The notes: a model not told the origin generated them from the sequence alone. A stretch of 64,000 bases of DNA from Candidatus Poribacteria bacterium (GCA_965197475.1 CBDANF010000002.1:288001-352000); one strand, 5' to 3'. Positions 43,461 through 61,396 are shown, counted from the first letter of the stretch. Numbers and translations are program-made.

Positions 43461-43554
43461 AGTATGTTTACAGACAGATTACCCTCAAACAGGCATACTG
43501 ACTGAATTACAAGCGCGCACGAAGCATCATGGGCAGCGTCCTGCTTATATGTTG

Positions 43555-44103: not shown

Positions 44104-45740
44104 AAACGGAATTCCTTTCTGATTACAACTTTCACAAAATTAATTCTTTCCTACACGTTCTCTCGTGTTTGCGCGATACGCGCGGTATCACCTGCCAACG
44201 CAGGTATTAGTAGACACACGATTTTCAATCGATTTTACATAAAACTTCAGTAGTCGTTATTCTTTTGCTGTTGCTGTCGCTATGTTTGAAGCTCCACCTT
44301 CGCCCTCACTATTCACAGCTCGCACTTGGAAGCCATAAAGTTCACCGCCTGTACGTTCGGTTACCGTTACAAAAGTATATGTTCCGACTGTAGAGAACCA
44401 CGATGTCCAAGCACTCCATCCCGAACTATAGTATCTCCGAAACCGCGCCTCATAACCGGTAATCGCAGTGCCCCCATCATCGCTTGGCGCATCCCAAGAC
44501 AGATATACCGCGCCGACTATTGTACTATGTGTTGAAGCTCTGAGATTAGTCGGCGCACCCGGCACAGTCGTAGATGATTGTGGCGTGACAGTGACTTTAG
44601 ACGATTCTGGACCTGACCCAGAACTATTCACTGCACGCACTTTAAACGCATAAACCGTGCCATTCGTTAAGCCCGTTAGCGGAACGGACGTGCTGCTACC
44701 GTTGTCCGTGGATGCCCAAGATCTCCAAGAACCATCGTCATCGGTATCTCTGCGATATTCGTAACCTGTAATCGCACCTCCACCATCTGAGGATGGCGTA
44801 TCCCAAGATAACGTGACCTGTCCATCACCTGCGGTTGCCTGTAGATTCTGAGGCGCACCTGGTGTTGATATTAATGGTAATTGCGGTGTGCCGGTGGCAA
44901 TATCTGATTCTGAACCTGCTGCACCCACGCTATTCACCGCACGCACACGGAACTCATATAGGGTGTCATTCGTGAGACCCGTTACGGTTTCCGATAAATC
45001 TATCCCCGCGGATGTCCATGAACCGAAATCGCCGCTGCTCCCTTCGCGATAACTGTATTCGTAATCGGTAATTATTAAACCCCCATTTGAATTGGGAGCA
45101 TCCCAGTAAAGTGACACTTCACCATCACCCGCGGTTGCGTTTAGATTTTGCGGCGCACTCGGTATAGTGGCTGGCGTTGCATAAGCTGTCCTTGATTCGG
45201 TACTTTCACCCGCGCTATTCACAGCTCGTATCCGGAACTTGTATCCCGTGCCGTTGGTCAATCCAAAAACCGAATTAAGAGTGTTGGTATTACCCCACGA
45301 TGTCCATGATGAACCGAAACTTTGAGAGGTGCGGCTATATTGGTATTCGTAATCGCTAATATCCGCACCGCCATCATCGCTTGGTGCTGTCCAAGATAGA
45401 CTGACCCACCCATTGTAACCGTAGCCACTCAAACTTGTGGGGGCACTAGGCACCGTCGCAGGCGTTGATTCTAAAGACTCGGTAGCGGCACTTGCACTCT
45501 CACCATTCATCGCTTTCACCTGGAACTTAAAGTCGTCCCGTTCGTTAACCCCAAAACATCAAAAAATGTGTTCGACCCCGCGGGTATCCAAAGACTCCAT
45601 ATTGAAAATGGCACATCCACGCGATACCGGTATTTGTAACCGGTAGTCGTACCACCGCCAGCAGTCCAGGAAAGACGGACTTGACCATCCCCAAAAGACG
45701 CACTAAAATTTGTCGGTGTATCTGGTGGTGCGGTGTCTGT
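43973..45740. repeat. 1.77-kb direct duplication, copy 1 (FN3 tail + intergenic + nuoI 5' end)
   Basis: Near-identical to 57933-59700 (offset 13960); a few SNPs. Confidence 0.95.
44257..45519 (-). CDS. Fibronectin type III repeat tail (4 complete FN3), frameshift-separated from the upstream protease ORF
   Basis: Repeated PSAP.NL.ATAGDG.V.LSW..P..DGG..IT.YEY....GLTNGT.Y.F.VRAVN. Confidence 0.9.
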   Translation of the reverse strand: MKAMNGESASAATESLESTPATVPSAPTSLSGYGYNGWVSLSWTAPSDDGGADISDYEYQYSRTSQSFGSSWTSWGNTNTLNSVFGLTNGTGYKFRIRAVNSAGESTESRTAYATPATIPSAPQNLNATAGDGEVSLYWDAPNSNGGLIITDYEYSYREGSSGDFGSWTSAGIDLSETVTGLTNDTLYEFRVRAVNSVGAAGSESDIATGTPQLPLISTPGAPQNLQATAGDGQVTLSWDTPSSDGGGAITGYEYRRDTDDDGSWRSWASTDNGSSTSVPLTGLTNGTVYAFKVRAVNSSGSGPESSKVTVTPQSSTTVPGAPTNLRASTHSTIVGAVYLSWDAPSDDGGTAITGYEARFRRYYSSGWSAWTSWFSTVGTYTFVTVTERTGGELYGFQVRAVNSEGEGGASNIATATAKE

Positions 45741-47732
45741 ACTAGTAACAATATCGGTGTCAGTGTCTTGACTGAGTTGATTTTCAAGGTTTTCCTCGTT
45801 GACGGGATGCTCTGTCCACTCCGGGTCCTCGTTCCCTTGCGGCGCACCTAAATCATACTCATAGTGGTGAAATACAGGGTAAATAGTTTCAGGATAAATG
45901 CCATACGCACGGGGGCCCGACATATAGTAGTCATAGTCCATAATGGATCTGCCGTAGGTATACGTGAAGGGACCCGTTGATATTCGAGACTTATTACCAC
46001 TATAAGTGTGGAATTTGAGCGTAAAAGTCGTAGTTTTCTTATCAGCATACTCATCCTCTGAGTCGGAGATATTCCAATAAAGATTTCGTTTTTGCAATGC
46101 TATTTGGTAGGCATCCGTCTCTCTATAGTCATTGCGGGCTTTCTCCGCATTCTTCTCGGCTTGCTCTCCTGCTTCGGGCGTTCGCTGGGCGGGGGGTAAG
46201 GCGTTAAATGCACTTACGATCTCATCATACTTGGCAGTTGCTGTCCGTGCTTCTGTTTGCCATGCTTCGAAAATCGATACCCTTCTTGCTATTTCATCAT
46301 GGGCTGCTTCTCTTTTCGGTTTGCCTGTATTGTCGAAAGCATACAAACCGATCCAGCCGGTTGCGGTACTCCCAAGTTGGAGACTGGCATCTTCCTCGAA
46401 ATCAAGTTTAGGATACACTGCCTTCTCTGCATCGGTCAGTGTAGGAACGCCTCCGTTAAAAGAGACTTTCCAGGGGTGCTTCAGTCCGATAGCATGTCCT
46501 ATTTCATGTCCTATCGTAGAATAAATAATTGCATCTTTCGTTGTCAGTTGATTTCCATCGTTATCTGTCTGTCGTGCAAGCCACTCAGGAAATCCGAGAT
46601 AATTATCACCATTGCCAACCGCGTTAGCCCTATTATCAATGGTATTGGTATAAATGTCAATAGTGTCATCCGCGTTTGTCCACCCCAAAAGGTTTGTCGT
46701 TGTCGTCTGTTTCTCAACCCATATCGCCTTTTTCGGCATGATCCACCAAGATACGTCGGCAGTATCTCGGATCGCTGTCGGCGCACCAAGCTTGTTAAAG
46801 TTGACGATGCGGTCATTTTTACCATCTTTCGTCTCGGTTTCCAGTATTTCGTATATAACGAACACACCCGGGAGTTTGTAGGCAGCACCGATACCCGATT
46901 TCGTCAGCCCTTTTTCACCAAACTCAGCGTATTGACTGTAAACAAAGATGTCTTTATTTTTCGGGTTCAAGCGTGTATGACTTCCACCAACCATGAACCC
47001 ACGGTATTCTTCAAACACGCACAGACCATCACCGATATGTGTATTCGTTTGCACACGGTTTTCATCGCCACCGGTTGTCGGACCCTCCTCAGTGTCCGCG
47101 GGCGGTATATGTCCGGTCGCGCCATCCCACTTATCTTTTTCCCATGAATCGGCAATGTAGTCGCCGTTGTCGTCCTTCGGAATAAATTTATTATCCGACC
47201 CCTGGCTCGTACCCGTAGAATTTGACAGTTCTGCAACAAGTCTGCCATACGCACCGCCATCTTCACAGCGAACGGTTATTGTAAACGTGATAGTAGCTCC
47301 AACATTGCTGTCAGAGTTAAACTTGACACCTACGCTGTCCCGCACGGCTATATTAACATTTGTCAGTTCTCTACCGACGAGGTCATTCCAGATGGCCGGT
47401 TCCCATCTTAAACCCGCAGGAAGCGGCACCTGATCTGCCGGATAGAAACGCAGATCAGGGTCGGTGCCAGGATTTTCACGGGGCATGTTCATACAAATAC
47501 CTATCCAACTCGAAACCTTTTCAAAACTCAAACTGACCGACCCCTCAGAAAAATCGATACCAGAAACCTCAACAGTGAAAGTTATTTTGCCCTGATCCGT
47601 CGGTTTCCAATCATCATAATCCATCGGAGGTCTCAACTCCACAGACGCAGCACGCGTATCAGAGGGAGACAAACCTGCCAACGTTGTTAAAAGACATAAT
47701 AGTATGATGTAAACAAATAAGCGATCTGTCAT
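45516..47732 (-). CDS. Secreted zinc metalloprotease-like protein (variant 1), continues into FN3 repeats after a 1-bp frameshift
   Basis: Signal peptide; W.P/CMN/DL.F N-domain; PKDDNGDYIADSWE; GDGL..EEYRGF; HEIGHAIGLKH; SIMDY Met-turn-like; first FN3 at the C-terminus. Confidence 0.75.
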   Translation of the reverse strand: MTDRLFVYIILLCLLTTLAGLSPSDTRAASVELRPPMDYDDWKPTDQGKITFTVEVSGIDFSEGSVSLSFEKVSSWIGICMNMPRENPGTDPDLRFYPADQVPLPAGLRWEPAIWNDLVGRELTNVNIAVRDSVGVKFNSDSNVGATITFTITVRCEDGGAYGRLVAELSNSTGTSQGSDNKFIPKDDNGDYIADSWEKDKWDGATGHIPPADTEEGPTTGGDENRVQTNTHIGDGLCVFEEYRGFMVGGSHTRLNPKNKDIFVYSQYAEFGEKGLTKSGIGAAYKLPGVFVIYEILETETKDGKNDRIVNFNKLGAPTAIRDTADVSWWIMPKKAIWVEKQTTTTNLLGWTNADDTIDIYTNTIDNRANAVGNGDNYLGFPEWLARQTDNDGNQLTTKDAIIYSTIGHEIGHAIGLKHPWKVSFNGGVPTLTDAEKAVYPKLDFEEDASLQLGSTATGWIGLYAFDNTGKPKREAAHDEIARRVSIFEAWQTEARTATAKYDEIVSAFNALPPAQRTPEAGEQAEKNAEKARNDYRETDAYQIALQKRNLYWNISDSEDEYADKKTTTFTLKFHTYSGNKSRISTGPFTYTYGRSIMDYDYYMSGPRAYGIYPETIYPVFHHYEYDLGAPQGNEDPEWTEHPVNEENLENQLSQDTDTDIVTSTDTAPPDTPTNFSASFGDGQVRLSWTAGGGTTTGYKYRYRVDVPFSIWSLWIPAGSNTFFDVLGLTNGTTLSSR

Positions 47733-48883
47733 TATTCTGTCTCCTTACTCTTATCAATTATAAGTTTCCTGGTTTTTTCATCGTAAATGTATTTTGGAGC
47801 CGGCCCGAAATACGAATATCCCTTGCGCTGCTCATAAACTTTATCTTGTGCCTTCTCTATACCATCAAGACTATTACTATATGGCAACCTTTGTATCCAA
47901 GATAATCCCTGATAGGCAGCGACAGAGTTTTCCCACTTACCGAGTTTCGCATAACATTTTGCTAACAATGAGTTCTTTTTCGCAATACGGCTATCCAGTT
48001 GACAGGCTTTCTGAATGTGCTCAAGAGCTAAGGCATACTTGTTCTTTATATAGTAGTACCACGCGATATCTTCGTGTGCAAAGGCAGCGTTTGGGAACTT
48101 TGCCAGCAGCTGCTTGTATGCTTCAATCCGTTCATCGTATGGATCGTATGGATGACATTTTACCCAGACGCGCATCGCCTCGACAGAGTTTGGGTTTTCC
48201 CGCATCGCACGCACTGCATACTCAAGACCAAACGTTTCGCGGGTGAGAGAGGAGCTCATAAGATACTTTGCAGCGGTGAGAGTATCTATGCCTTCAAACA
48301 GAATCTCAAGCCTTTTTCGTTCACGGACATCTTCTGGGAGCGTTGTTGGCAGTGCGTCCATTCGCTCCTCTTGTCCCTTTGTCATGTAAAAGATTTTACC
48401 TGTGAAAGGTGCCTTATTCTTATCCACCGGATAGTCTACAAAGATAGCACCGGGGTAGCCGCGAACATCATCCCATATCGGTTTTCCTTTTTGGTCATAA
48501 GGGAGGATTTTTATCTTGTCTTTGAAAGGATTGGTGCCGATAAGAGCAGGATCATAGAGTGCCTTTATCGGCACAGCAAAGTCTGGTTTCCACAGCAGAT
48601 CAGGATTAGCAATAACTTCTTTTTTGCGTTCAATAGATTCCGGGTAGCCTCTATTTTCAGCGACATCTGCCTTGAATTGTTCTATAAGCCGCTCAAAACT
48701 CGGTTCTTGGAACGGGGGCAGTTTGACCGGTTTACGACTATTTGCAGGGACGGGACCGTAGGCAGCTTGGTTATACGGATCTGCGTGTTCGGGCACAGTT
48801 TCCACGTCACAGCCACTGTAGCCTGCAAGCAGGATAACGGTTAGCATCAGTCCGGTTGTGAGGGTATCAATACGAAATTTCAT
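47732..48883 (-). CDS. TPR lipoprotein (array cassette L1), coupled to the intact protease
   Basis: MKFRIDTL...LAGYSGC lipobox; C-terminal TPRs; TAATG overlap with the protease. Confidence 0.8.
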   Translation of the reverse strand: MKFRIDTLTTGLMLTVILLAGYSGCDVETVPEHADPYNQAAYGPVPANSRKPVKLPPFQEPSFERLIEQFKADVAENRGYPESIERKKEVIANPDLLWKPDFAVPIKALYDPALIGTNPFKDKIKILPYDQKGKPIWDDVRGYPGAIFVDYPVDKNKAPFTGKIFYMTKGQEERMDALPTTLPEDVRERKRLEILFEGIDTLTAAKYLMSSSLTRETFGLEYAVRAMRENPNSVEAMRVWVKCHPYDPYDERIEAYKQLLAKFPNAAFAHEDIAWYYYIKNKYALALEHIQKACQLDSRIAKKNSLLAKCYAKLGKWENSVAAYQGLSWIQRLPYSNSLDGIEKAQDKVYEQRKGYSYFGPAPKYIYDEKTRKLIIDKSKETE

Positions 48884-48923
48884 CAGTTTTCTCCTTTTGC
48901 TTGACTTGCTGAGTCTCAACAGT

Positions 48924-49006
48924 TTATGTAGCAAGGTTAGCGACCGTATAGTTCGGTGCTTCCTCCGTAATATCAATATCGTGCGGATGGCTTTCTCGGT
49001 AACCAC
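48924..49006 (-). pseudogene. guaB: guaB 3'-end fragment copy (83 bp)
   Basis: GYRESHPHDIDITEEAPNY = IMP dehydrogenase C-terminus. Confidence 0.85.
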
Positions 49007-49116
49007 CCATTATACGCATCCAAATTCGCTGGCTCTATAGAAACACTCGGTGGACCATCCGCAGCGGACGGATTCAGCACACTAAACAATGTCAAAACAG
49101 AAATGCGATATTTCAT
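49007..49116 (-). pseudogene. 5' stub of the secreted protease family
   Basis: MKYRISVL.../...PSVSIEPANLDAYNGWLP; ATGA overlap with the lipoprotein stop. Confidence 0.6.
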
Positions 49117-50222
49117 TTGTCATATCCTTCTTGTATTAATTCTATAAGTGAATACCCTTTTCGTTGCTTCCGAATCTTATCTTTTGCTATATCCAACTCA
49201 CTATCCAACTTATATATCCGCAATGGACTTGGTTGGAAAAAATAATCCATTCCCTGATAGGCAGCAACGGCTTTCTCCCATTCCCCAAGTGTGAAATAGC
49301 ATATCGCTAACAAGTCATTCGTTTTGGCAATACGACTGTCTAACTGACAAGATTTTTGCATATGAACCAGTGCAGCCTCCGGGTCATCTTTCTCGTAGTA
49401 ATAGTGCCACGCGATTAGCTCGTGAGCAAACGCATCGTTGGGGAACTTTGAAAGCAGCTGTTGGTATGCCTCAATCTTTTGATCTTCAGGATGGCATTTG
49501 ACCCAAATACGCATCGCTTCAACAGAGTTCGGATTTTCACGTATTGCACGCTCCGCATATTCAACGCCAATAGCTTTTTTGTTAGGAGAATTCATTTGGC
49601 TCAGGTGTTTTGCAGCAGTGAGTGTATCTACCCTCTCATACACAATCACAGCACGTTTTCTATAGTAGTTAATATCTGCGTCCGAATTTGGATTCAAATG
49701 CCTCCAGTTTTGCCGTACAGCATCCAACCTCTCCTCTTGATCTTTTGTTTTGTAGATAACTTTGCCCGCAAAAGGATACACTTCTTTGTCATGATCATAG
49801 ACCCCGTGTATAGGTTTTCCTTTTTCAGAATAAGAGCGGACTTTTATCTTATCGCGTGTTGGATTGTAGCCCGGCAGTCTTGGGATTTCATCGAAATTTA
49901 GTGTGGGGGGCACCTCAAATCCGATGCCATCCCACAGTATATCGGGGTTGGCAATTGCTTTTCTTTTGCGTTTGAGCATCTCTGGGTCCCCCTTATTTTC
50001 AGTGACATCTGCTTTGAACTGTTCTATCAGTCTCTCAAAACTCGGTTCAACAATGGTTAGTTTTACGGGCTTTCGGCTATTCGCCGCGACGGGTCCGTGT
50101 TCTGCTTGGTTATAAGGGTCTGCGTGTTCGGGGGCGGTTTTCTGTCCGCAGCCAGAGCAACCAGCGAGCAGAGTAACGGTCGTCAATAGTAAAGTTGTGA
50201 GGATTTCAATACGAAATTTCAT
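49113..50222 (-). CDS. TPR lipoprotein (cassette L2)
   Basis: MKFRIEIL...LLAGCSGC; paralog of L1. Confidence 0.8.
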   Translation of the reverse strand: MKFRIEILTTLLLTTVTLLAGCSGCGQKTAPEHADPYNQAEHGPVAANSRKPVKLTIVEPSFERLIEQFKADVTENKGDPEMLKRKRKAIANPDILWDGIGFEVPPTLNFDEIPRLPGYNPTRDKIKVRSYSEKGKPIHGVYDHDKEVYPFAGKVIYKTKDQEERLDAVRQNWRHLNPNSDADINYYRKRAVIVYERVDTLTAAKHLSQMNSPNKKAIGVEYAERAIRENPNSVEAMRIWVKCHPEDQKIEAYQQLLSKFPNDAFAHELIAWHYYYEKDDPEAALVHMQKSCQLDSRIAKTNDLLAICYFTLGEWEKAVAAYQGMDYFFQPSPLRIYKLDSELDIAKDKIRKQRKGYSLIELIQEGYDK

Positions 50223-50262
50223 CAGTTTTCTCCTTTTGCTTGACTTGCTGAGTCTCAACAGT

Positions 50263-50490
50263 TTATGTAGCAAGGTTAGCGACCGTATAGTTCGGTGCTT
50301 CCTCCGTAATATCAATATCGTGGGGATGGCTTTCTCGGTAACCGCTGCTTGACATACGGACAAATTGGACATCTCTGCGTAACGACTCAATATCTGGTGT
50401 GCCGCAATATCCCATAGCGGAACGAATCCCACCTACTAACTGATAGACAAAATTGCTCAGTTTGCCTTTATGAGGCACTCGACCTTCAAT
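50263..50490 (-). pseudogene. guaB: guaB 3'-end fragment copy (228 bp)
   Basis: IEGRVPHKGKLSNFVYQLVGGIRSAMGYCG...ESHPHDIDITEEAPNY. Confidence 0.92.
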
Positions 50491-50625
50491 AACACGCCAT
50501 CACCTATTTTAGCACCAATACGCACAGTGTGCAAGCGTTTTGACGTGTGTTCAAGGATAAATGCTTTTGTGTCTGCAGCATCCGCAGCGACAGAATTTTG
50601 TTTGTGTTTTTCATTTGCATTTTAC

Positions 50626-50797
50626 GCAAGCCCCCTTCAATAACAGGGCTATCTTTTGCTGGGTACCATGGCTTCGGTACAGAAACCTTTATCTTATTGT
50701 TATTAGTGGGAGCTTGTTCTGCAGCACCAATAGCATTGTCAATAAAATATATGTGTATACTCAACAAAACTAATAAAAATATGATTGCCCTATTCAT
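50626..50797 (-). pseudogene. 5' stub of a secreted protein (MNRAII...KPWYP)
   Basis: Signal peptide plus W.P motif; truncated at the junction with a duplicated foreign segment. Confidence 0.55.
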
Positions 50798-51806
50798 TGG
50801 TTTTCTCCTTTTTGGGTCGCCCAATCTTACCAATCTTGTTATCTCGCTGCATCGTCATAATATGGTATTCTGCACCTTCTGGGCCATACTTAGACAAATG
50901 CTTTAATGTTTCCAACGCTTTGGCATCTTCTTCTGTCCAGTAAAAGTATGCTTTAGCCAATTCAAACAATATACCTGTTTTCAAAAAAGTTGGGTGGTCT
51001 GCTGGCACATCGGGTGCGTATTGATATGCTTTTTTCAGTAAAGGTATTGCCTCCGCAGAATACGTTATATCCCCTAACCTATAAAGCGCGTAAGGTGCGT
51101 TTGGACGCATTTTCAATAAACGCCAATAGCCGTCCCTTTTTTTGTCATAATTCCGTTGGAAGCGTGTCCAAACGAGTAACGTGTGGTAATCGTCTGGGTT
51201 GTCATCAAGGGCTTGTTGCGCATACTTCAAGTCTCGGTCTGTGTAAATATTGTGCGCAGCAATATATTTCACAGCATTCAGTGGGGTCATGCCTTCCGTC
51301 ATTATCTCTGCCCGTTTGTCTGCTAATTCTGATTCGATTTCTCGGATAATGTCCCCTCTGCGTTTTTCTGATGTTACGCCTTCAATTCTTTTTTTGAGTT
51401 TATCCCTATATTCGTATTCGCGTTGTTCATATCGCGCCCATTTCTCCGCATGGTTAGGCGCGATTGGCACCATGTCATTATATTCCGCTGGTGTATCCTC
51501 AATCTCCCATTCATAGTCAAAATCGGGTATCCAAAAAATAGGGTCGTCTTGATAGTCGGGCGGTGGTGCTGTGCCTGTTGCCGTAAGGTCTTCATACGGG
51601 TTTTCGGGTGGGTAATATGTGGTCGGTATAACTTCCGAGTCCAGTATCTCTGTCGGGGGCGTGCGTCCATCTGTTATGTCCGCACCGTTTTTCTCCGACT
51701 CGGCTTTTTCGTCGGTAATGTTTTGCTGTTGACACCCTAAACTTCCAACAAATAAAATAAAGGCTGTCATCAGTAAAGTGGTGATGTGTGCTGTGATAAG
51801 TTTCAT
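50790..51806 (-). CDS. TPR lipoprotein (cassette L3; no guaB fragment upstream)
   Basis: GSLGC lipobox; YPPENPYEDLTATGTAPP shared with L4. Confidence 0.8.
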   Translation of the reverse strand: MKLITAHITTLLMTAFILFVGSLGCQQQNITDEKAESEKNGADITDGRTPPTEILDSEVIPTTYYPPENPYEDLTATGTAPPPDYQDDPIFWIPDFDYEWEIEDTPAEYNDMVPIAPNHAEKWARYEQREYEYRDKLKKRIEGVTSEKRRGDIIREIESELADKRAEIMTEGMTPLNAVKYIAAHNIYTDRDLKYAQQALDDNPDDYHTLLVWTRFQRNYDKKRDGYWRLLKMRPNAPYALYRLGDITYSAEAIPLLKKAYQYAPDVPADHPTFLKTGILFELAKAYFYWTEEDAKALETLKHLSKYGPEGAEYHIMTMQRDNKIGKIGRPKKEKTNE

Positions 51807-51921
51807 CGTTTGTTCCCCTTATTGATTTGAAGTATGCAGTTTGCTTTTATAAATGCTCGTTTTATCAATAAATACTACCATCTGATATGACTATCTTAAA
51901 ACGAATATAAATATGATTGCT

Positions 51922-52932
51922 CTATTCATTGGAAGTCTCCTTTGTGCCACGCACAAACATACCAATCTTGTTATCGCGTTGCATAGACGTAATATAGTAT
52001 TCTGCGCGTTCTGGGTTAAACTTTGACATATACTCCAACGTTTCCAACGCTTTTGCATCTTCACGAGTCTCGTAGTAGTATTTTTTAGCCAATTCATACA
52101 ATGCACCGTATTGTATATTAAACCCGCTGGGTTTAAGTGGTTCTTCTGGGGCGTATTGCAGTGCCTTCTTGAGTATAGGTATCGCCTCGGGGGAATGTGT
52201 ATAACGACCTAACCTATAAAGCGTGTAGGGTGCGTTGGGGCGCATTTTGACCAAACGTTGATAGGCTTCCCTTCTTTTATCTAAATCAACTTGTGCTTCT
52301 GTCCAAACGAGTAGGGTGTGATAATCATTCGGGTTTTCATCAAGGGCTTGCTGCACATATTTCAATACATGGTCTGTATTCATGTTATGTGCAATCAAAT
52401 ACTTTGCAGCATTGAGGGGTGTCAAGCCTTCGGTCATTATCTCTGCCTTGATGACCTTTAATTTCGACTGGTTCACTTTGTAAATTTGCAACAGCAATTT
52501 TTCTGATGTTACGTCTGTTACGTTTTTCAGTTCTTCCTCAAATTTATCGTCAAATTCTTTCTCGTGTTGTTCAAACCGTGCCATTTTCTCCGCACGGTTG
52601 GGTGCTATAGGCAAGGATACTGCATATTTCTCTGTGATGTCAGATTCTAACTCATATTCAAACGCTGGTATCCAGAAAATAGGGTTGCCTTTATAGTCGC
52701 TGGGCGGTGCCGTTCCTGTTGCCGTAAGGTCTTCATACGGGTTTTCGGGTGGGTAAAAGGTTGTGGGAAGTGTTGTATCCGCATCTGCTTCGGGGAACGG
52801 TGTAACATCCTTTTGCGTATCCGCTTGCGGTTCAACTTGTTCTGGTGGTTTCTGTTTATCCCCATTGCAGCCAACGAGTAGAATAACGACTATCATTAGT
52901 AAAGTTGTGAGTATTTCAATACGGATTTTCAT
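51922..52932 (-). CDS. TPR lipoprotein (cassette L4)
   Basis: MKIRIEIL...LLVGC; paralog of L3; followed by a 12-codon MNRAII stub (51891-51929). Confidence 0.8.
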   Translation of the reverse strand: MKIRIEILTTLLMIVVILLVGCNGDKQKPPEQVEPQADTQKDVTPFPEADADTTLPTTFYPPENPYEDLTATGTAPPSDYKGNPIFWIPAFEYELESDITEKYAVSLPIAPNRAEKMARFEQHEKEFDDKFEEELKNVTDVTSEKLLLQIYKVNQSKLKVIKAEIMTEGLTPLNAAKYLIAHNMNTDHVLKYVQQALDENPNDYHTLLVWTEAQVDLDKRREAYQRLVKMRPNAPYTLYRLGRYTHSPEAIPILKKALQYAPEEPLKPSGFNIQYGALYELAKKYYYETREDAKALETLEYMSKFNPERAEYYITSMQRDNKIGMFVRGTKETSNE

Positions 52933-52972
52933 CAGTTTTCTCCTTTTGCTTGACTTGCTGAGTCTCAACAAT

Positions 52973-53428: not shown

Positions 53429-53478
53429 AAAATAAACCCCTAATTAATAATCTAAGGTATGACATTAACGATTGATGT

Positions 53479-54600
53479 TTATTGTGAATTGTCTATAGGC
53501 TCCAATTTTTTAGGGTTGTAAAATGAACGACCTTTTCGCTGTATAAATACCCCGTCTTGTGCTGTCGTAAGATGTGTATAGACTCCACCCCCCAACTGAC
53601 CGTATGAGTCTATTACAGATATGCTCTGATAGACTGCGACCGCTTTCTCCCATTCCCCAAGTGTCTCATAACAGGAGGCTAATCCAGCCTTTGATAATGA
53701 TTCGTGACGACTATCAAGTTGTATCGCTTTTTGGTAATGTGGGATGGCTAACTCAGGAGAATCCAGCTTTCTGTGGTATATATAACCAAGGATTGAATGG
53801 GAATTGGCATCGTTAGGGAACTTTGCTAACAACTTTTCATACGCATTTTTTTTATCTTCTATAGGTTCCCACGGAACGCAGCCTGTCCAAATAGACATCG
53901 CCTCTACAGAGTTTGGGTTTTCGCGCACGGCACGTTCAGCGTATTCAAGTCCGATGGTATGTGCAACACTTGCAGTCTCTTTGCTCAGATACTTTGCCGC
54001 TGTGAACGTATTTATACCCTCAAGCTTTATCTCATACTTTTTACGTATTCGCTCTTCTATTGAGAGATCGTAGGTATGTGAGATTGCTGCCATTCTCTTC
54101 TCTTGTTCTTTTGTAGTATAGAAAACCTTACCTTTGAATTCATACTGAGTGTCACCACCATCCGCGAAGGTGGCGAGTATCGGTTTTCCTTTCTGACTCT
54201 CACGCAGTATCTTTATATCTCTTCTAAACGGGTTTCCCCCTGGAGCAAATCTGGGGTCTTGAAAGTTGTGATTCGGGACACAAAATCCAGGTGTCCATAG
54301 CTGATCAGGGTTCTCGATCGCCTGTTTTTTACGAGCAAGCACTTCTGGGTCGCCACGGTTGGCTGCCACATCTGCTTTGAATTGTTCAATAAGATTCTCA
54401 AAACTCGGTTCGGGGAAAGGATCCAGTTTTGCCTGTTTGCGCGTGTTCGCTGCGACTGGTCCGTATTTAGATTGTTCGTTGTGATCGTCTGTCGGTTCAA
54501 TCCCTTTGAGGGCGTTTTTTTGTGCACATCCAGCGCATCCGCTTAATAGGATTATCACTGTAAGAAACACAGTTGTGAGGGTTTCTATGCGAAATAACAT
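53479..54600 (-). CDS. TPR lipoprotein (cassette L5)
   Basis: MLFRIETL...LLSGCAGC; GPVAAN..PSFE.LIEQFKADV shared with L1/L2. Confidence 0.8.
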   Translation of the reverse strand: MLFRIETLTTVFLTVIILLSGCAGCAQKNALKGIEPTDDHNEQSKYGPVAANTRKQAKLDPFPEPSFENLIEQFKADVAANRGDPEVLARKKQAIENPDQLWTPGFCVPNHNFQDPRFAPGGNPFRRDIKILRESQKGKPILATFADGGDTQYEFKGKVFYTTKEQEKRMAAISHTYDLSIEERIRKKYEIKLEGINTFTAAKYLSKETASVAHTIGLEYAERAVRENPNSVEAMSIWTGCVPWEPIEDKKNAYEKLLAKFPNDANSHSILGYIYHRKLDSPELAIPHYQKAIQLDSRHESLSKAGLASCYETLGEWEKAVAVYQSISVIDSYGQLGGGVYTHLTTAQDGVFIQRKGRSFYNPKKLEPIDNSQ

Positions 54601-54641
54601 TTTGATTCTCCTTTTTGCCTGGCTTGCTGAGTCTCAACAAT

Positions 54642-54724
54642 TTATGTAACAAGGTTAGCGACCGTATAGTTCGGTGCTTCCTCCGTAATATCAATATCGT
54701 GCGGATGGCTTTCTCGGTAACCAC
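54642..54724 (-). pseudogene. guaB: guaB 3'-end fragment copy (83 bp)
   Basis: Same junction as 48924-49006; preceded by a duplicate protease stub at 54725-54834. Confidence 0.85.
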
Positions 54725-54830
54725 CCATTATACGCATCCAAATTCGCTGACTTTATAGAAACACTCGGTGGACCATCCGCAGCGGACGGATTCAGCACAC
54801 TAAACAATGTCAAAACAGAAATGCGATATT

Positions 54831-55949
54831 TCATTTGTCATATCCTTCTTGTATTAATTCTATAAGTGAATACCCTTTTCGTTGCTTCCGAATCTTATCT
54901 TTTGCTATATCCAACTCACTATCCAACTTATATATCCGCAATGGACTTGGTTGGAAAAAATAATCCATTCCCTGATAGGCAGCAACGGCTTTCTCCCATT
55001 CCCCAAGTGTGAAATAGCATATCGCTAACAAGTCATTCGTTTTGGCAATACGACTGTCTAACTGACAAGATTTTTGCATATGAACCAGTGCAGCCTCCGG
55101 GTCATCTTTCTCGTAGTAATAGTGCCACGCGATTAGCTCGTGAGCAAACGCATCGTTGGGGAACTTTGAAAGCAGCTGTTGGTATGCCTCAATCTTTTGA
55201 TCTTCAGGATGGCATTTGACCCAAATACGCATCGCTTCAACAGAGTTCGGATGCTCACGCATCGCACGCTCCGCATATTCAATGCCGATAATTTTTGTGC
55301 TGGGATGATCAGGATCATTGAATTGACTCAAATATTTTGCTGCTGTGAGTGTGTCTATTCCTTCAAATGTAATCACATACTGTTCTCGGTAATAGTCAAC
55401 ATCCGCTCTTGAGTTCGGATTCGCATTATGCCAGTTTTGGCGCGCAGCATCCTTCCTTTCCTTTTGCTCTTTTGTGATGTAGATAACTTTGCCCGCAAAA
55501 GGATACACTTCTTTGTCATGATCATAGACCCCGCGTATAGGTTTTCCTTTTTCAGAATAAGAGCGGACTTTTATCTTATCGCGTGTTGGATTGTAGCCCG
55601 GCAGTCTTGGGATTTCATCGGAATTTAGTGTGGGGGGCACCTCAAATCCGATGCCATCCCACAGTATATCGGGGTTGGCAATTGCTTTTCTTTTGCGTTT
55701 GAGCATCTCTGGGTCCCCCTTATTTTCAGTGACATCTGCTTTGAACTGTTCTATCAGTCTCTCAAAACTCGGTTCAACAATGGTTAGTTTTACGGGCTTT
55801 CGGCTATTCGCCGCGACGGGTCCGTGTTCTGCTTGGTTATACGGATCTGCGTGTTCGGGCACAGTTTCCACGTCACAGCCACTGTAGCCTGCAAGCAGGA
55901 TAACGGTTAGCATCAGTCCGGTTGTGAGGGTATCAATACGAAATTTCAT
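54831..55949 (-). CDS. TPR lipoprotein (cassette L6), mosaic of L1 and L2
   Basis: N-terminus identical to L1, most of the body identical to L2, unique middle patch. Confidence 0.8.
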   Translation of the reverse strand: MKFRIDTLTTGLMLTVILLAGYSGCDVETVPEHADPYNQAEHGPVAANSRKPVKLTIVEPSFERLIEQFKADVTENKGDPEMLKRKRKAIANPDILWDGIGFEVPPTLNSDEIPRLPGYNPTRDKIKVRSYSEKGKPIRGVYDHDKEVYPFAGKVIYITKEQKERKDAARQNWHNANPNSRADVDYYREQYVITFEGIDTLTAAKYLSQFNDPDHPSTKIIGIEYAERAMREHPNSVEAMRIWVKCHPEDQKIEAYQQLLSKFPNDAFAHELIAWHYYYEKDDPEAALVHMQKSCQLDSRIAKTNDLLAICYFTLGEWEKAVAAYQGMDYFFQPSPLRIYKLDSELDIAKDKIRKQRKGYSLIELIQEGYDK

Positions 55950-55989
55950 CAGTTTTCTCCTTTTGCTTGACTTGCTGAGTCTCAACAAT

Positions 55990-56487
55990 TTATGTGTTCA
56001 GGTTAGCGACCGTATAGTTCGGTGCTTCCTCCGTAATATCAATATCGTGCGAATGGCTTTCTCGGTAACCACTGCTTGACATGCGGACAAATTGGACATC
56101 TCTGCGTAATGTCTGTCTCGAACCGCTTCGGTTATCTTCTTCTCGGAAAAAGAGATCTACTGATCTACCGGTGTCATCGTCCCCGTTAGCATTCATGCAG
56201 ATGCCAGGCCACTCAGAAGAATCAAGAGTAAACGTATACGTCACAGAATCAATTCGGACAGATTGTCCTGTTTTAGTTTCCCCCTTAAGTGTTGCCACAA
56301 ACTCTGCGTTTGTCTTATATTCAGGTCGCCAATCTGCCCATGTTGTTGGAGACGCCGGTTCAAGGTTCAGCTCGAATGTCGGCGTATTGGCATTTCCGTT
56401 TGCCTCTGCCGAGCCAACAGGTAAGTAAAACGGTAAACAAATAACCAATGTTAACAGTATCAATGAAATAATAACATTCTTTCGCAT
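55990..56487 (-). pseudogene. Chimeric ORF: protease-family 5' stub fused in frame to the guaB 3' fragment (55990-56109)
   Basis: MRKNVII...ADWRPE...WPGICMN..DLFF..RQT|LRRDVQFVRMSSSGYRESH. Confidence 0.85.
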
Positions 56488-56521
56488 AATATTCTCCTTA
56501 ATTGATGTCATCAACTTCTCT

Positions 56522-57529
56522 CTAACGCCGCAGTGGTGTCGGCAGATGGGGACCGAGGATCGGTAGTCCAGCCTTTCTTATCTTTTCACGCACGTCCTCA
56601 CCTTTGCCCCCACTGTTCACAACATCTTCCGCTGTAAGGAACAACGAACTGATCGCACCGATGATGTAAGAAGGTTGTGAGGTTGCCACCGCATATTGAT
56701 GTGAACGCCGGAACGATGCTAATGCCTTTTGGTAATCGCCCATTTGATAATAACACATCCCCTCAAGTCCTAATGGAAGATAACGCGGGTCTAATTCTTG
56801 TGCTTTTTGTGCATAACCGAGTGCCTCTTGCGGATTCGTTCCTAAAATACATTTAGCAAGTCTATGCAGGACCCACGGATGGTTTGGATTCATTTCATAC
56901 AAACGACGGGTCGCTGCCGTTTTTTCTTCACCATAAGGGTTTGCCAAATTTCCACCTGCGAGCACCCACAGCAGCAAGGTATCAAAATCATCAGGATTTT
57001 CGGCATACGCAAGGTTTATTAAATTGCTCACTCTGTGATCAATCGATCCACTTAGTTCAATGTCCAGCTGCGCGGATGCGACAAGACCATATTCCCGAAA
57101 ATATTGAAGGGCTATTTCATCAGACTCTTTAGCAGTTATCGTCTTTTGTCTTCCGGCTTTAAGCAATTTTCTTGATATTTCCACGCGATTTATCCACCAC
57201 TCAATAGGAACAACGATTGGGTCCCATGGCAAAGGAATGCCAGCTTCATTTTTACGCGATATCTCAATGTATTCAATACCTTTTAGGGACTTAAGGTAAT
57301 CCAAATCACTGAAGTTCTTTGGAGATAATTTTGCGGTTTTTCCGCGTGGTTTGGGTTTTGTCCCATTTTGCTTTACTCCGGATAACTTAGGCACCCTATC
57401 TGGTGTTGATTGATTCGGTGGTGTGATAGGTGTATCGGGATCCGTTTTTTGTCCGCAACCAGAGCAACCACCGAGTAGTATTACCACTATCAAAAGTAAA
57501 ATTGCGAGGTTTTCAATACGAAGTTTCAT
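56522..57529 (-). CDS. TPR lipoprotein (cassette L7)
   Basis: MKLRIENL...LLGGCSGC; ENPDDFDTLLLW, TPRs. Confidence 0.8.
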   Translation of the reverse strand: MKLRIENLAILLLIVVILLGGCSGCGQKTDPDTPITPPNQSTPDRVPKLSGVKQNGTKPKPRGKTAKLSPKNFSDLDYLKSLKGIEYIEISRKNEAGIPLPWDPIVVPIEWWINRVEISRKLLKAGRQKTITAKESDEIALQYFREYGLVASAQLDIELSGSIDHRVSNLINLAYAENPDDFDTLLLWVLAGGNLANPYGEEKTAATRRLYEMNPNHPWVLHRLAKCILGTNPQEALGYAQKAQELDPRYLPLGLEGMCYYQMGDYQKALASFRRSHQYAVATSQPSYIIGAISSLFLTAEDVVNSGGKGEDVREKIRKAGLPILGPHLPTPLRR

Positions 57530-57568
57530 TGTTTTCTCCCTTGGCTTGACTTACTGAGTCTCAACAAT

Positions 57569-57796
57569 TTATGTGTTCAGGTTAGCGACCGTATAGTTCG
57601 GTGCTTCCTCCGTAATATCAATGTCGTGGGGATGGCTTTCTCGGTAACCGCTGCTTGACATACGGACAAATTGGACATCTCTGCGTAACGACTCAATATC
57701 TGGTGTGCCGCAATATCCCATAGCGGAACGAATCCCACCTACTAACTGATAGACAAAATTGCTCAGTTTGCCTTTATGAGGCACTCGACCTTCAAT
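57569..57796 (-). pseudogene. guaB: guaB 3'-end fragment copy (228 bp)
   Basis: Near-identical to 50263-50490. Confidence 0.92.
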
Positions 57797-57932
57797 AACA
57801 CGCCATCACCTATTTTAGCACCAATACGCACAGTGTGCAAGCGTTTTGACGTGTGTTCAAGGATAAATGCTTTTGTGTCTGCAGCATCCGCAGCGACAGA
57901 ATTTTGTTTGTGTTTTTCATTTGTATTTTACA

Positions 57933-58063
57933 CTTCTCGGATCTTCGGGGTACTGAACTGTTAATTTCTTCTTAGGGATGTGTTTTAACGTTGTGAACAT
58001 CCCCTTAATCAACGCTGGGATATAGAGTCTATCCCAAAATGACATCTCTTCGTTAACTCTCAT
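57933..58063 (-). pseudogene. nuoI: nuoI 5' fragment (about 43 codons)
   Basis: Copy of 43973-44103 ending at ...QYPEDPR. Confidence 0.88.
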
Positions 58064-58216
58064 AAACGGAATTCCTTTCTGATTATAACTTTCACAAAAT
58101 TAATTCTTTCCTACACGTTCTCTCGTGTTTGCGCGATACGCGCGGTATCACCTGCCAACGCAGGTATTAGTAGACACACGATTTTCAATCGATTTTACAT
58201 AAAACTTCAGTAGTCG

Positions 58217-59479
58217 TTATTCTTTTGCTGTTGCTGTCGCTATGTTTGAAGCTCCACCTTCGCCCTCACTATTCACAGCTCGCACTTGGAAGCCATAAAG
58301 TTCACCGCCTGTACGTTCGGTTACCGTTACAAAAGTATATGTTCCGACTGTAGAGAACCACGATGTCCAAGCACTCCATCCCGAACTATAGTATCTCCGA
58401 AACCGCGCCTCATAACCGGTAATCGCAGTGCCCCCATCATCGCTTGGCGCATCCCAAGACAGATATACCGCGCCGACTATTGTACTATGTGTTGAAGCTC
58501 TGAGATTAGTCGGCGCACCCGGCACAGTCGTAGATGATTGTGGCGTGACAGTGACTTTAGACGATTCTGGACCTGACCCAGAACTATTCACTGCACGCAC
58601 TTTAAACGCATAAACCGTGCCATTCGTTAAGCCCGTTAGCGGAACGGACGTGCTGCTACCGTTGTCCGTGGATGCCCAAGATCTCCAAGAACCATCGTCA
58701 TCGGTATCTCTGCGATATTCGTAACCTGTAATCGCACCTCCACCATCTGAGGATGGCGTATCCCAAGATAACGTGACCTGTCCATCACCTGCGGTTGCCT
58801 GTAGATTCTGAGGCGCACCTGGTGTTGATATTAATGGTAATTGCGGTGTGCCGGTGGCAATATCTGATTCTGAACCTGCTGCACCCACGCTATTCACCGC
58901 ACGCACACGGAACTCATATAGGGTGTCATTCGTGAGACCCGTTACGGTTTCCGATAAATCTATCCCCGCGGATGTCCATGAACCGAAATCGCCGCTGCTC
59001 CCTTCGCGATAACTGTATTCGTAATCGGTAATTATTAAACCCCCATTTGAATTGGGAGCATCCCAGTAAAGTGACACTTCACCATCACCCGCGGTTGCGT
59101 TTAGATTTTGCGGCGCACTCGGTATAGTGGCTGGCGTTGCATAAGCTGTCCTTGATTCGGTACTTTCACCCGCGCTATTCACAGCTCGTATCCGGAACTT
59201 GTATCCCGTGCCGTTGGTCAATCCAAAAACCGAATTAAGAGTGTTGGTATTACCCCACGATGTCCATGATGAACCGAAACTTTGAGAGGTGCGGCTATAT
59301 TGGTATTCGTAATCGCTAATATCCGCACCGCCATCATCGCTTGGTGCTGTCCAAGATAGACTGACCCACCCATTGTAACCGTAGCCACTCAAACTTGTGG
59401 GGGCACTAGGCACCGTCGCAGGCGTTGATTCTAAAGACTCGGTAGCGGCACTTGCACTCTCACCATTCATCGCTTTCAC
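58217..59479 (-). CDS. FN3 repeat tail, identical to 44257-45519
   Basis: Identical 420-aa translation. Confidence 0.9.
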   Translation of the reverse strand: MKAMNGESASAATESLESTPATVPSAPTSLSGYGYNGWVSLSWTAPSDDGGADISDYEYQYSRTSQSFGSSWTSWGNTNTLNSVFGLTNGTGYKFRIRAVNSAGESTESRTAYATPATIPSAPQNLNATAGDGEVSLYWDAPNSNGGLIITDYEYSYREGSSGDFGSWTSAGIDLSETVTGLTNDTLYEFRVRAVNSVGAAGSESDIATGTPQLPLISTPGAPQNLQATAGDGQVTLSWDTPSSDGGGAITGYEYRRDTDDDGSWRSWASTDNGSSTSVPLTGLTNGTVYAFKVRAVNSSGSGPESSKVTVTPQSSTTVPGAPTNLRASTHSTIVGAVYLSWDAPSDDGGTAITGYEARFRRYYSSGWSAWTSWFSTVGTYTFVTVTERTGGELYGFQVRAVNSEGEGGASNIATATAKE

Positions 59480-59504
59480 CTGGAACTTAAAGTCGTCCCG
59501 TTCG

Positions 59505-61385
59505 TTAACCCCAAAACATCAAAAAATGTGTTCGACCCCGCGGGTATCCAAAGACTCCATATTGAAAATGGCACATCCACGCGATACCGGTATTTGTAAC
59601 CGGTAGTCGTACCACCGCCAGCAGTCCAGGAAAGACGGACTTGACCATCCCCATAAGACGCACTAAAATTTGTCGGTGTATCTGGTGGCGCGGTGTCTGT
59701 GCCTGACCATCAGTCCCAGTGCCATTGTCGTTATCTTCATCGTTGTCTAGTTCCCATTGTGGCTTGGTTTTACGGGGCGGATCCAGCAACGGCTTGGCAA
59801 GATGTGCTGCACGAACATCGGGGGCAACGAATTGGTATTCACTGTTATGGAAGTCGGGGTACTCTTTGCTCCCTTCGTAACCGGACATGTAGGAAGAGGC
59901 AGCCGCGTTATATCCCTTATTAGAATACTCGCCAACGACGTGAGGATCACCGTAATCCATTATGGTTTCACCAGGTCTATTAAAAAGGAACGTTCCCAAC
60001 GCACCACCAACTCTATCTGTTAACCAAGGATGATACAAGTTGATACCGTGTCCAAGTTCATGACCAATATAACGTTTTATCATTTCAGAGGTGGTTGGTA
60101 ATGCCTTATTCGGTTCATGTTCTTCCATCTCCGCAACAGCAGCTTTATTTCGTTCTTTGATGTATTCATGAAAAATGTAGACATATAACACCTGATGACA
60201 TGGACCGACAACCGGTTCAATAATACCATATATTCCAACATAATCTGTCCCGTTTGAGTGTGTGTAACTACCGTTTGCGTTCTCATGCTTTCTGACCCAG
60301 AGGTCGCGCTGTTTTACGACTTGTAAGGCGTTACCGCAACTTCGAGAATTCATAACACATGGATCCCCTTGAACGTCTATCACGGGATTCCCTTGAGCGT
60401 CCATCACATCATTCCCTTGAGCGTCTTTCTTTATGGGATCATTCATTTCCGCAAACAGGATTTGGTGAGTTGTTATGATATCATCAGGTAGGTTACTTGC
60501 ATAACCGATGCCCTCATCAAACTCGGAATGGATAAAGAGGTCTTTCTTCCTTGAATCCGTGCGGATATGCTCGCCTTGGACGATGAAACCACGATATTCT
60601 TCAAGCACGGTGAAACCATCACCGCGGAAAGTATTGTTGCCGGGACCGGTTTCTTCATCTGCCCACGGGTCATAATCGTGTATCGCGTCGTCTTGCCACC
60701 CATCGGCGATGTCGTTGCCATTATTGTCTTTGGGAATCGAAAGACTGTCGTTTGCTGAGGTGTTATTGCTTGGGGTGCCATCTTCCTCTTCGCCTTCTGC
60801 ATCTTCCTTATCGTTGAGGCTTACAAAACCATCAAGTATGCCGTGTCCACCATAGTCATCAACGTAAAGATATATGGAAATACCTGTATGAGGTGTTTTG
60901 CAGGTAACCGTCAGGATCGGCCCATTCGTCCCGCTAACCCGATACTTTAATTGATCAGTGTCTGCGGGTTGGTCTGTTTGACGAAAGTAAATATCCTTTT
61001 GAGAGTCGGACTGATCGCCTTTATTCATGCAGAAACCTGGGTAATCGGAAACATTATTTCGCAGCGTAAAAGTGTAGGAAGTTGATGTGATGGCATCAGT
61101 CTCCTCTGAACCCGCAATGATATAGGCAGAAATAGTAAGGACTGTTTTCTGGGCCGGTCTCCAGTCCTCCCACGTAATATTTTCAAATTCACCATCGGAT
61201 TCCTTAGCCGCAGTGGGGTGAAGTTTTAGTTTGTAAGTGTCATCACCATTTGCTGCACAAGGCTGCTGAGAAATGACTAAACTGATAACGACGATAGGTA
61301 ACAAAGTCAAGATAAGATATTGAGGGTATTGGTTAAATAATGATGCAAGAATTAGCGGGATACCCTCTGAACCGCGCTGCATCAT
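59505..61385 (-). pseudogene. Secreted metalloprotease-like protein (variant 2), out of frame with its FN3 tail at about 59700
   Basis: WRPA, FCMNKG, DIYF, PKDNNGNDIADGWQ, GDGF..EEYRGF, HELGHGINLYH, TIMDY. Confidence 0.72.
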
Positions 61386-61396
61386 ATTTCAGTTGC

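Follow-up and report, generated by a model that had tools for sequence, protein, structure and literature searches.

The locus described here raises the question of how a bacterial genome can build a multi-cassette accessory region, and share it with other strains and species, without an integrase, a transposase or an att site. The stretch of DNA analysed, hereafter the window, is 64,000 nucleotides (nt) long and comes from a Candidatus Poribacteria bacterium (GCA_965197475.1, CBDANF010000002.1:288001-352000); it corresponds to positions 288001-352000 of contig C2 in an assembly of three contigs and 5.7 Mb, designated G000. Within it, an array of genes encoding TPR lipoproteins (L) and secreted metzincin-type zinc proteases with fibronectin-III (FN3) tails (P) is interspersed with copies of the 3' end of the housekeeping gene guaB and closed by nuoI. 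The reading favoured here, to which a probability of roughly 0.6 is given, is that the array belongs to an integrase-free hot spot between guaB and nuoI, where recombination with the guaB tail as its anchor brings in L-P modules, reorders them and exchanges them.

All genes of the array lie on the minus strand. Read 5' to 3' on that strand, they begin with P626 (59505-61385; open reading frame [ORF] and tblastn), a divergent, near-full second metzincin of 626 amino acids (aa), and a gene for four FN3 domains (FN3x4; 58217-59479), followed by a 5' fragment of nuoI (57926-58063, aa 1-46, by sequence search), the lipoprotein genes L7 to L1 (57529 down to 47732), P738 (45516-47732), the other FN3x4 gene (44257-45519; Pfam fn3, E 1.8e-44) and finally intact nuoI (43555-44103), which is the conserved right-hand flank (NCBIfam NuoI, E 9.5e-33; 81-92% nt identity in 38 of 39 genus genomes). 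The repeat structure of this array is real. It includes a 1774-bp direct repeat (43967-45740 versus 57927-59700; 99.66% identical by blastn) that an initial annotation of the window, made from its sequence, had missed. The first copy of this repeat runs from 137 nt of the nuoI 5' end across the intergenic region and FN3x4 into the final ~220 nt of the protease gene; the second starts at the nuoI fragment, and the FN3x4 protein that it encodes (ORF, tblastn) is identical to the first. The same annotation had counted seven intact lipoprotein genes, one of them (L3, 50790-51806) without a guaB piece, and this count holds. Its placement of a complete lipoprotein-protease-FN3 set beside nuoI is correct in that P738, FN3x4 and nuoI close the array, but P738 is not the sole protease, as near-full P626 and a second FN3x4 gene lie in the same range. 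Further, a protease stub had been described in every unit but the last, and P-family stubs are detectable in only two units (52973-53428 and 55990-56514). Nor is the protease partner destroyed in every unit, since P626 is almost complete and the frameshifts of both proteases seem to be indels of the assembly.

Six copies of the guaB 3' end, as first annotated, were recovered on the minus strand by tblastn and by the Pfam IMPDH model (E 8e-11), at 48927-49004, 50266-50496, 52976-53149, 54645-54722, 55993-56115 and 57572-57802. Their tblastn E values range from 3e-11 to 1e-44, and their translations are 93-97% identical to IMPDH segments that start at residue 427, 446, 463 or 478 and end at 503. 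Taken 5' to 3' on that strand, the fragments are 231, 123, 78, 174, 231 and 78 nt long and precede L7, L6, L5, L4, L2 and L1, respectively. The spacer that had been proposed after them is also borne out: each fragment ends in the same guaB stop codon and is followed by an identical 41-nt leader, with the ribosome-binding site (RBS) AAGGGAG, and then by the lipoprotein start. Both 231-nt fragments (aa 427-503) have in common an upstream segment of ~130 nt (blastn, tblastn), giving shared stretches at 50266-50625 and 57572-57931, the latter of which abuts the nuoI fragment. The 78-nt fragments (aa 478-503) at 48927-49004 (tblastn, alignment) and 54645-54722 (tblastn) belong to units without a P stub. 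A total of seven such 78-nt fragments, four in G000 and three in the related genome G003, all come after an L of the L385 type while the downstream L differs, and the 174-nt fragment is always found behind the same stub. Junction classes recur across loci and species, tracking the upstream element. It should be noted that a reading frame other than that of guaB stays open through fragment and leader into each L gene (47732-50432, and in all units), which is why ORF lists give the L genes 40-70 extra N-terminal residues; the ATG after the RBS is likely the true L start.

Repeated copies of a target gene's 3' end are typical of islands that integrate into such ends, and the array could on that basis have arisen from islands without an integrase that accumulated in tandem at an att site at the 3' end of guaB, through a site-specific recombinase encoded elsewhere. 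The fragments, however, show no single fixed core, as their lengths across genomes are 78, 102, 123, 174, 231, ~273 and 471 nt, and the left partners of the guaB junctions differ (P, FN3, L flank or nuoI remnants). Additionally, the inverted-repeat search returned eight unrelated pairs, none of which recurs at unit borders. An att-site origin is therefore regarded as highly improbable. In agreement with the initial description of the array as integrase-free and devoid of attC-like sites, no integrase was found in or beside it; there are only insertion sequence (IS) transposases, at 61578-63608. An integron-type cassette array was also considered and set aside, there being neither an integrase nor attC-like repeats at the borders. 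The same applies to a structured RNA or riboswitch in the guaB-leader segment, since a scan of 43000-62000 against Rfam at E <= 0.1 yielded no match and folding gave a z-score of -1.08.

Evidence that the guaB tail acts as an anchor comes from a comparison of 10 units of G000 in 45 pairs, with the anchor defined as the 121-nt guaB tail plus leader. Anchor identity has a median of 91.7%, a minimum of 86.7% and a maximum of 99%, signal-peptide codons are 68% identical, and L bodies have a median identity of 57.2% (41.7-93.2%). This contrast, 87-99% for tail and leader versus 42-93% for L bodies, agrees with an earlier suggestion that housekeeping-gene ends serve as recombination anchors. Mosaic breakpoints lie just past the signal peptide. 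For example, L6 (54831-55949) has, by alignment, the signal peptide of L1 (100%) and the body of L2 (93%), and the second and fourth L genes of an array on contig C3 are 98-100% identical over anchor and signal peptide and 58% identical over their bodies.

That second array stands behind the only intact guaB of G000, which is on contig C3. It consists of four to five L genes and two P stubs with the same guaB fragments, is interrupted by an IS630-type fragment and is closed by an IS3-type transposase gene. In the window, guaB is represented by its six 3' fragments; the intact gene is on C3 with an array of its own. In the window, two transposase genes on the plus strand (NCBIfam; IS701/IS4-like at 61578-62732 and IS1 at 62814-63608) abut the array at the place where an upstream L and guaB would be expected. 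The IS701/IS4-like element (61386-62000 of the window) has a summed depth of ~1700 in public run X1 and ~12000 in run X3, versus ~17-60 for unique parts of the window, and is therefore highly repeated in these communities.

The guaB-nuoI interval was compared in 39 other genomes of the genus by subtracting the coordinates of the guaB 3' end from those of nuoI. The gap is shorter than 800 nt in 28 of the 39 and spans 1.4-11.3 kb in eight (G054, G006, G005, G041, G049, G013, G003 and G052); in two the genes lie on different contigs, and in one neither gene was matched. Filled sites contain L, P, FN3 and guaB fragments, and cassette number and order differ among species. In G005 the order is guaB, L, P remnant and nuoI. 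G003 has guaB, L, a guaB fragment, L, a second fragment, L, P, FN3 and nuoI, in which the L genes are whole or remnants and the protease is P626-like. G013 carries a guaB fragment, L, stub, L, P, FN3 and nuoI, and in G052 three L-P modules are linked by junctions of FN3 and guaB remnants. Intact guaB abuts nuoI in G055 and the array lies upstream of guaB; there, the L and stub array (locus L028, G055:C21:2584001-2598000) opens with a long guaB fragment (aa 347-503), and it seems that the whole of guaB was duplicated and the first copy truncated. Multi-copy guaB fragments are present in 7 of 40 genomes. Because filled sites elsewhere hold the same parts, the window is taken to be the nuoI half of a guaB-nuoI hot spot that was split in G000, with IS elements at both broken ends.

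Comparison with G003 points to exchange between species. Synonymous divergence (dS) between L cassettes of G000 and G003 is 0.009, 0.077, 0.099, 0.117 and 0.241, versus 0.84 for guaB, 0.47 for nuoI and 0.84 for a flanking gene that encodes a 917-aa protein; at the nucleotide level, the array is 97.5% identical over 2595 nt versus 82-87% in the flanks. The guaB fragments themselves appear to have diverged within working genes. Nine fragments compared with the resident guaB contain no stop codon and no frameshift, and pooled counts are 74 synonymous changes over 282 sites and 23 nonsynonymous changes over 963 sites (pN/pS 0.09), a pooling that overstates independence due to shared substitutions. 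Drift since duplication in situ would be expected to give a pN/pS of about 0.5 or more. The fragments look like the tails of other working guaB alleles that were captured recently.

Based on these observations, the following sequence of events is proposed. Two-gene modules, a TPR lipoprotein gene followed by a secreted metzincin-FN3 protease gene, would fill the guaB-nuoI site, joining beside guaB, and would then be duplicated, shuffled and passed between strains and species by general recombination. The homology anchor would comprise the final 78-231 nt of guaB and the 41-nt leader, in many cases extended by the codons of the signal peptide. Each founding event may have been an illegitimate join that fused a point in the guaB tail to a downstream element, which could be the 5' part of P, FN3, the 3' flank of an L or the 5' end of nuoI. 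Such a join would leave a guaB 3' copy before the next L and would often trim the preceding P to a stub of ~100 codons. Units could thereafter spread by homologous recombination, for which an integrase or attC-like site would be unneeded. The arrangement fits entry or duplication at the guaB end of units of the form leader, L and sometimes a P remnant, joined to a guaB tail, with older units pushed towards nuoI. In G000, an IS-associated rearrangement would have split the locus, leaving guaB with four to five cassettes on C3 and two protease-FN3 genes with nuoI in the window.

The lipoproteins that make up most of the array start with a lipobox-containing signal peptide, which is followed by an N-terminal alpha/beta part and, at the C-terminus, by a TPR domain. 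L1 (47732-48883, 383 aa), identified by its ORF and TPR Pfam matches, is directly upstream of P738 and was modelled by AlphaFold2 (AF2) with a predicted local distance difference test (pLDDT) score of 85.2. L2 (49113-50222; ORF, tblastn), L3 and L5 (53479-54600; both ORF, Pfam, tblastn) are further TPR lipoproteins, as are L4 (51922-52932; tblastn), which is 56% identical to L3 in aa sequence, and L7 (56522-57529; ORF, Pfam, tblastn), which is of a divergent type. Read by eye, the lipobox region is MK[FIL]RIE..LLAGC(S/A)GC in L2, L5, L7 and the C3 copies, with the variants LLAGYSGC in L1 and L6 and VGSLGC in L3. A fold search with the L structure model returned only generic or designed TPR proteins, and a PDB sequence search and a protein atlas likewise gave generic TPR matches only. 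L relatives fall in 42 protein clusters, and 59 L-profile ORFs are present in the 5.7-Mb genome. The L genes are under purifying selection, with nonsynonymous to synonymous rate ratios (dN/dS) of 0.18-0.57 in 14 of 14 pairs. RNA contigs of public run X21 cover L1, L2 and FN3x4 at a depth of ~3, which is not in itself evidence of transcription.

P738 (738 aa) was recognized as a secreted metzincin-type zinc protease by motifs, Pfam, NCBIfam, an AF2 model and alignment. It consists of a signal peptide, an immunoglobulin (Ig)/cohesin-like N-domain, a GDGLxxFEEYRGF region, the zinc motif HEIGHAIGLKH, a SIMDY Met-turn and a first FN3 domain. The residues of HExxHxxGxxH are H409, E410, H413 and H419, conserved in 22 of 23 aligned members, and G416, conserved in 15 of 23. 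M598 of SIMDY, which is taken here by analogy, not from a structure, to be the Met-turn, occupies all 19 non-gap rows of its column, and Y600 all 18 of its own. Family models match at low scores: Pfam Reprolysin_4 reaches 22.1 bits at a cut-off of 22, NCBIfam serralysin is far below its cut-off (E 1.4e-4), the protein atlas gave only leads under 0.9 (Reprolysin_3, M66, TSP3_bac) and a PDB sequence search matched FN3 domains only. The AF2 model has a mean pLDDT of 66.8; in a fold search, its N-terminal beta-sandwich matched Ig/cohesin-like domains and the catalytic part had no match. P626 is 26% identical to P738 over the N-terminal 430 aa, and the two have only the FN3 tail in common. Relatives of P738 are single P+FN3 proteins of 1030-1193 aa, and P738 and FN3x4 are split by a 1-nt shift in a T run near 45529, behind which an X3 contig has one extra T; FN3x4 is most likely the C-terminal continuation of P738. 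Similarly, P626 joins the 1774-bp repeat out of frame in the assembly, and contigs of X1, X3 and X4 have one extra base behind 59703 that restores its frame with the FN3 tail. Both proteases are probably whole, with the frameshifts due to single-base assembly indels. The equivalent T run near 59489 is also implicated in homopolymer indels.

A profile search identified 20 P-family ORFs in G000, comprising five stubs and 15 longer genes, and these provide the context for asking whether L and P are partners. Of the 15, nine are immediately preceded by an L-profile ORF on the same strand, two more have one within 2 kb and four have none; P626 is among these four, and its upstream side is occupied by IS elements. 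Further L-P modules are found at C2 362107-365801, ~10 kb past the right end of the window, and at ten other places in the genome. Because L-P adjacency holds across very divergent paralogues (9/15), the two genes are argued to be coupled. Moreover, stub type goes with the type of the preceding L, such that L373- or L385-type genes are followed by a P738-like stub and L7 by a P626-like stub. A structure prediction of the cognate complex, which the initial annotation had called for, was made for a single pair (L1 residues 36-383 with P738 residues 26-640, both with alignments). It gave a median score of 0.33 (runs of 0.33, 0.27 and 0.72) versus 0.01 for the best of three controls, with a partner pLDDT of 80 or more and agreement between runs in no fewer than 49% of contacts. 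Of 80 solved complexes, 58 reach the pass mark, as do 2 of 110 mismatched pairs, and a pass at or below 0.60 is a weak one, as is seen for 7 of 80 solved complexes and for both passing mismatches. The score is thus above controls but counts as a weak pass. Taken with this model, L and P are most likely partners, with L predicted to bind and control, or to dock, its protease in the envelope; it may be a dedicated envelope partner acting as inhibitor, chaperone or adaptor, all of which are possible roles.

TPR-lipoprotein and protease pairs are exemplified by NlpI-Prc of E. coli and LbcA-CtpA of P. aeruginosa, and partners of secreted enzymes include the serralysin inhibitor Inh/AprI and the lipase foldase Lif. 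The pairs described here resemble the first two in combining a protease with a helical-repeat protein held by a lipid anchor, and the latter two in that the partner gene lies beside that of a secreted enzyme. Unlike in the NlpI and LbcA type, the protease here is a metzincin and not an S41 enzyme, and L matches generic TPR folds only. Further, none of these pairs is known to form cassette arrays.

The layout of the array had led the initial annotation to read it as an orphan-immunity array of a polymorphic toxin system. In its fullest form, this reading would cast P as a protease toxin used between bacteria and L as the protein that confers immunity to it, with the array a store of orphan immunity genes and toxin remnants kept against the P variants of neighbouring strains, by analogy with known orphan arrays or with acquired interbacterial defence clusters. 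Several features are as it would predict: L is kept by purifying selection while the adjacent P is truncated, there are many L genes per P and one array on C3 was counted as lacking P, the cassettes are strain-variable and horizontally shared, L and P are adjacent in 9 of 15 cases, and the predicted complex scores 0.33 versus 0.01, albeit as a weak pass. In contact-dependent inhibition (CDI), Rhs and MafB systems, however, the immunity gene lies directly downstream of the toxin gene and orphans consist of C-terminal toxin pieces plus immunity, whereas here the order is reversed, with L upstream, and the remnants are N-terminal and non-catalytic. Nor is there a conserved N-terminal core with a variable C-terminal tip, as P738 and P626 differ along their N-terminal 430 aa and variation is found throughout P. 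Pfam, NCBIfam and PADLOC gave only weak metzincin and TPR matches and no known family of toxins, delivery proteins or immunity proteins; with its Sec signal, Ig-like domain and FN3 tail, P resembles a conventional secreted protease, and the genome encodes ~15 paralogues. Outside Poribacteria, relatives of P with 23-32% identity are spread over many phyla, and none of the 67 non-poribacterial loci kept has an L-profile ORF upstream. A conserved upstream stretch for recombination is present, as in those systems, but it derives from guaB and not from a toxin gene. As stated by the initial annotation the reading is not supported, and overall it is somewhat disfavoured and deemed unlikely; the pattern of L kept and P lost is compatible with it.

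A different function for L was considered with reference to Mycoplasma vsp and vlp loci, where tandem lipoprotein genes combine, as here, highly conserved upstream regions and signal peptides with mature portions that differ. L could accordingly be a variable surface-lipoprotein family for interaction with hosts or phages, the neighbouring protease being unrelated in function. All L genes are complete and each has its own RBS. TPR and FN3 proteins of Poribacteria are discussed in one published account as candidates for host interaction (PMC3909097). Against this stand the adjacency of L and P across very divergent paralogues and the match between stub type and L type. Additionally, no site-specific invertase, internal tandem repeat or phase-variation repeat was seen in the array, the upstream region is a housekeeping-gene fragment, the genes are protease-linked, and dN/dS values of 0.18-0.57 reveal no overall positive selection. 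A surface-antigen role independent of P is thus considered improbable.

Several observations weigh against the anchored-recombination hypothesis and its L-P partnership. First, all guaB breakpoints lie within the last ~470 nt of the gene, which could reflect a requirement for a promoter instead of an anchor role. Sigma-70-like sites in the anchor numbered 24 versus a mean of 22 in shuffled sequences, giving no signal above shuffles, and one weak site of this kind recurs upstream of both 231-nt fragments. Second, support for an L-P interaction is computational and graded weak, and the absence of an upstream L-profile ORF from all 67 non-poribacterial P loci kept is matched by the finding that the five loci that have one are all poribacterial. 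Third, stubs with one common junction show dN/dS of 0.20-0.24, which would not be predicted if they were dead scars of a join. Fourth, the cassette order is taken from the assembly, as public short-read contigs break at every anchor and none bridges it, and L3 to L5 are ~10-30 times deeper than P738, L1, L7 and P626 in X1 and X3. Last, locus L024 (G000:C2:1130001-1148000) is a plain tandem of four L copies that are 93-94% identical, and tandem duplication in situ can give the same junctions as those in the window. In this tandem one L copy is interrupted by a transposase-like ORF, the array precedes a 1002-aa P-FN3 gene and guaB pieces are absent.

The last of these points leads to a purely local explanation, in which tandem duplications in situ with left breakpoints in guaB, divergence of L and gene conversion at 5' ends produced the array with no horizontal exchange and with guaB scars as passive by-products. 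Junctions that join P, FN3, L-flank or nuoI remnants to guaB remnants are those expected of tandem duplication, in line with the L024 tandem. This explanation does not accommodate the between-species dS of cassettes, which is 10-90 times below that of flanking genes, the fragment pN/pS of 0.09 versus about 0.5 or more under neutral drift, or the recurrence of the same junction classes in different species and loci, and it is considered decidedly improbable.

The depth differences bear on whether the array is a chimeric or collapsed join of short guaB-L-P-nuoI loci from several strains. The public runs compared (X1, X3, X4 and X21) all consist of short contigs. In X1 the depths are ~17-20 versus 190-250 and in X3 they are ~50-60 versus 420-2400, such that part of the array could be shared with, or borrowed from, a more abundant co-resident strain. 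In more abundant strains, joints with sides of only 20-37 nt connect different cassette borders (52758 to 57516 and 59685 to 50679) and suggest other cassette orders in those strains. Assembly indel errors and an estimated contamination of the G000 assembly of 6.97% further favour an artefact. This pattern of depths and joints fits a cassette pool shared among strains but leaves room for chimeric assembly. On the other hand, the array sits deep in a 1.5-Mb contig of a three-contig assembly and the public runs contain every cassette sequence at 95-100% identity. Arrays of several cassettes built in this way are present in G003, G052, G055 and G013; since these are independent genomes, one of them a single contig, the architecture itself is argued to be real. 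An array created by assembly alone is accordingly judged very improbable.

The third point concerns the stubs, which are N-terminal and non-catalytic, consisting of a signal peptide plus about 90-130 aa. Both of those in the window are on the minus strand. The stub at 52973-53428 (P profile, E 4.9e-26; Pfam IMPDH, E 8e-11) has ~93 codons of P fused in frame to the 174-nt guaB fragment (aa 446-503), a junction that recurs on contig C3 and in G055. The stub at 55990-56514 (P profile, E 4.7e-14) is of the P626 type and is fused in frame to the 123-nt fragment (aa 463-503). Over six pairs drawn from the window stub at 52973-53428, locus L007 (9312-9758 and 13173-13451) and locus L026 (6104-6406), dN/dS is 0.18-0.41. 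In many stubs of the genus, the P sequence stops around P738 residues 100-116, shortly after a conserved G-x-C-M-N...D-L-x-F motif. The stubs may be functional small secreted proteins and not scars. A bolder idea is that the array is a recombinase-free, population-shared anti-protease library that hitch-hikes on the guaB tail. In it, L would act as inhibitor or decoy against the metzincins of rival Poribacteria strains in the sponge, and so would the stub, a signal peptide plus the half-domain with that motif, which is repeatedly cut near one point and has ratios of 0.20-0.24 after truncation; any strain could capture units via the 3' end of an essential gene. This idea is speculative and rather doubtful.

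If the hot-spot interpretation is correct, the locus differs from known arrays in its reiterated housekeeping-gene-tail anchor, its L-first order and its protein families. Like the displacement arrays of rhs, CDI and MafB, it has serial cassettes that keep a conserved upstream piece usable as an anchor and older modules that are displaced or truncated, and it is strain-variable and horizontally exchanged with no dedicated recombinase. Unlike in those arrays, the anchor is the 3' end of unrelated guaB and not the toxin's own core, and the gene that is kept, L, precedes the truncated one. Also similar are the minimal mobile elements of Neisseria, which are variable cassettes between conserved genes that are exchanged by homologous recombination and are usually single alternative inserts lacking duplicated flank pieces: the guaB-nuoI site has variable content between two conserved housekeeping genes, empty sites in many relatives, no mobility genes inside and inferred exchange. 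In contrast to them, the units here are in tandem and carry partial copies of the flank. A literature search, with gene tables in the supplements of genome papers outside its scope, found no paper on such a locus in Poribacteria.

The tail of an essential gene may thus serve as a portable homology arm, with tail copies marking each acquisition, and this would offer a route by which a multi-cassette accessory locus is assembled and shared by general recombination. The data also point to a large Poribacteria-specific family of modules, each a TPR lipoprotein plus a secreted metzincin-FN3 protease, with about 15 protease genes per genome. Relatives of P fall in 24 protein clusters, with one relative named Candidatus Poribacteria, and both families appear, at the sequence level, to be essentially poribacterial. 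Since L-P genes are strain-variable and mobile between species, they are likely relevant to competition or to handling of the host matrix in sponge symbiosis, and the array yields concrete L/P protein pairs for testing.

Two further features of the window were noted. A 109-aa ORF on the minus strand (50504-50833) has a signal-peptide-like start and is not P-like, with no match to the P profile or PADLOC. Downstream of nuoI, at 40057-43460, lie the gene for the 917-aa protein, which has no family match, and an MT-A70/type II methyltransferase gene. PADLOC returned no match for L, P, the 109-aa ORF or the 917-aa protein; the MT-A70 gene alone matched, to a type II methyltransferase. The 917-aa and MT-A70 genes are syntenic in G003 and G013 (82-87% nt identity) and are therefore part of the conserved backbone and not of the island.

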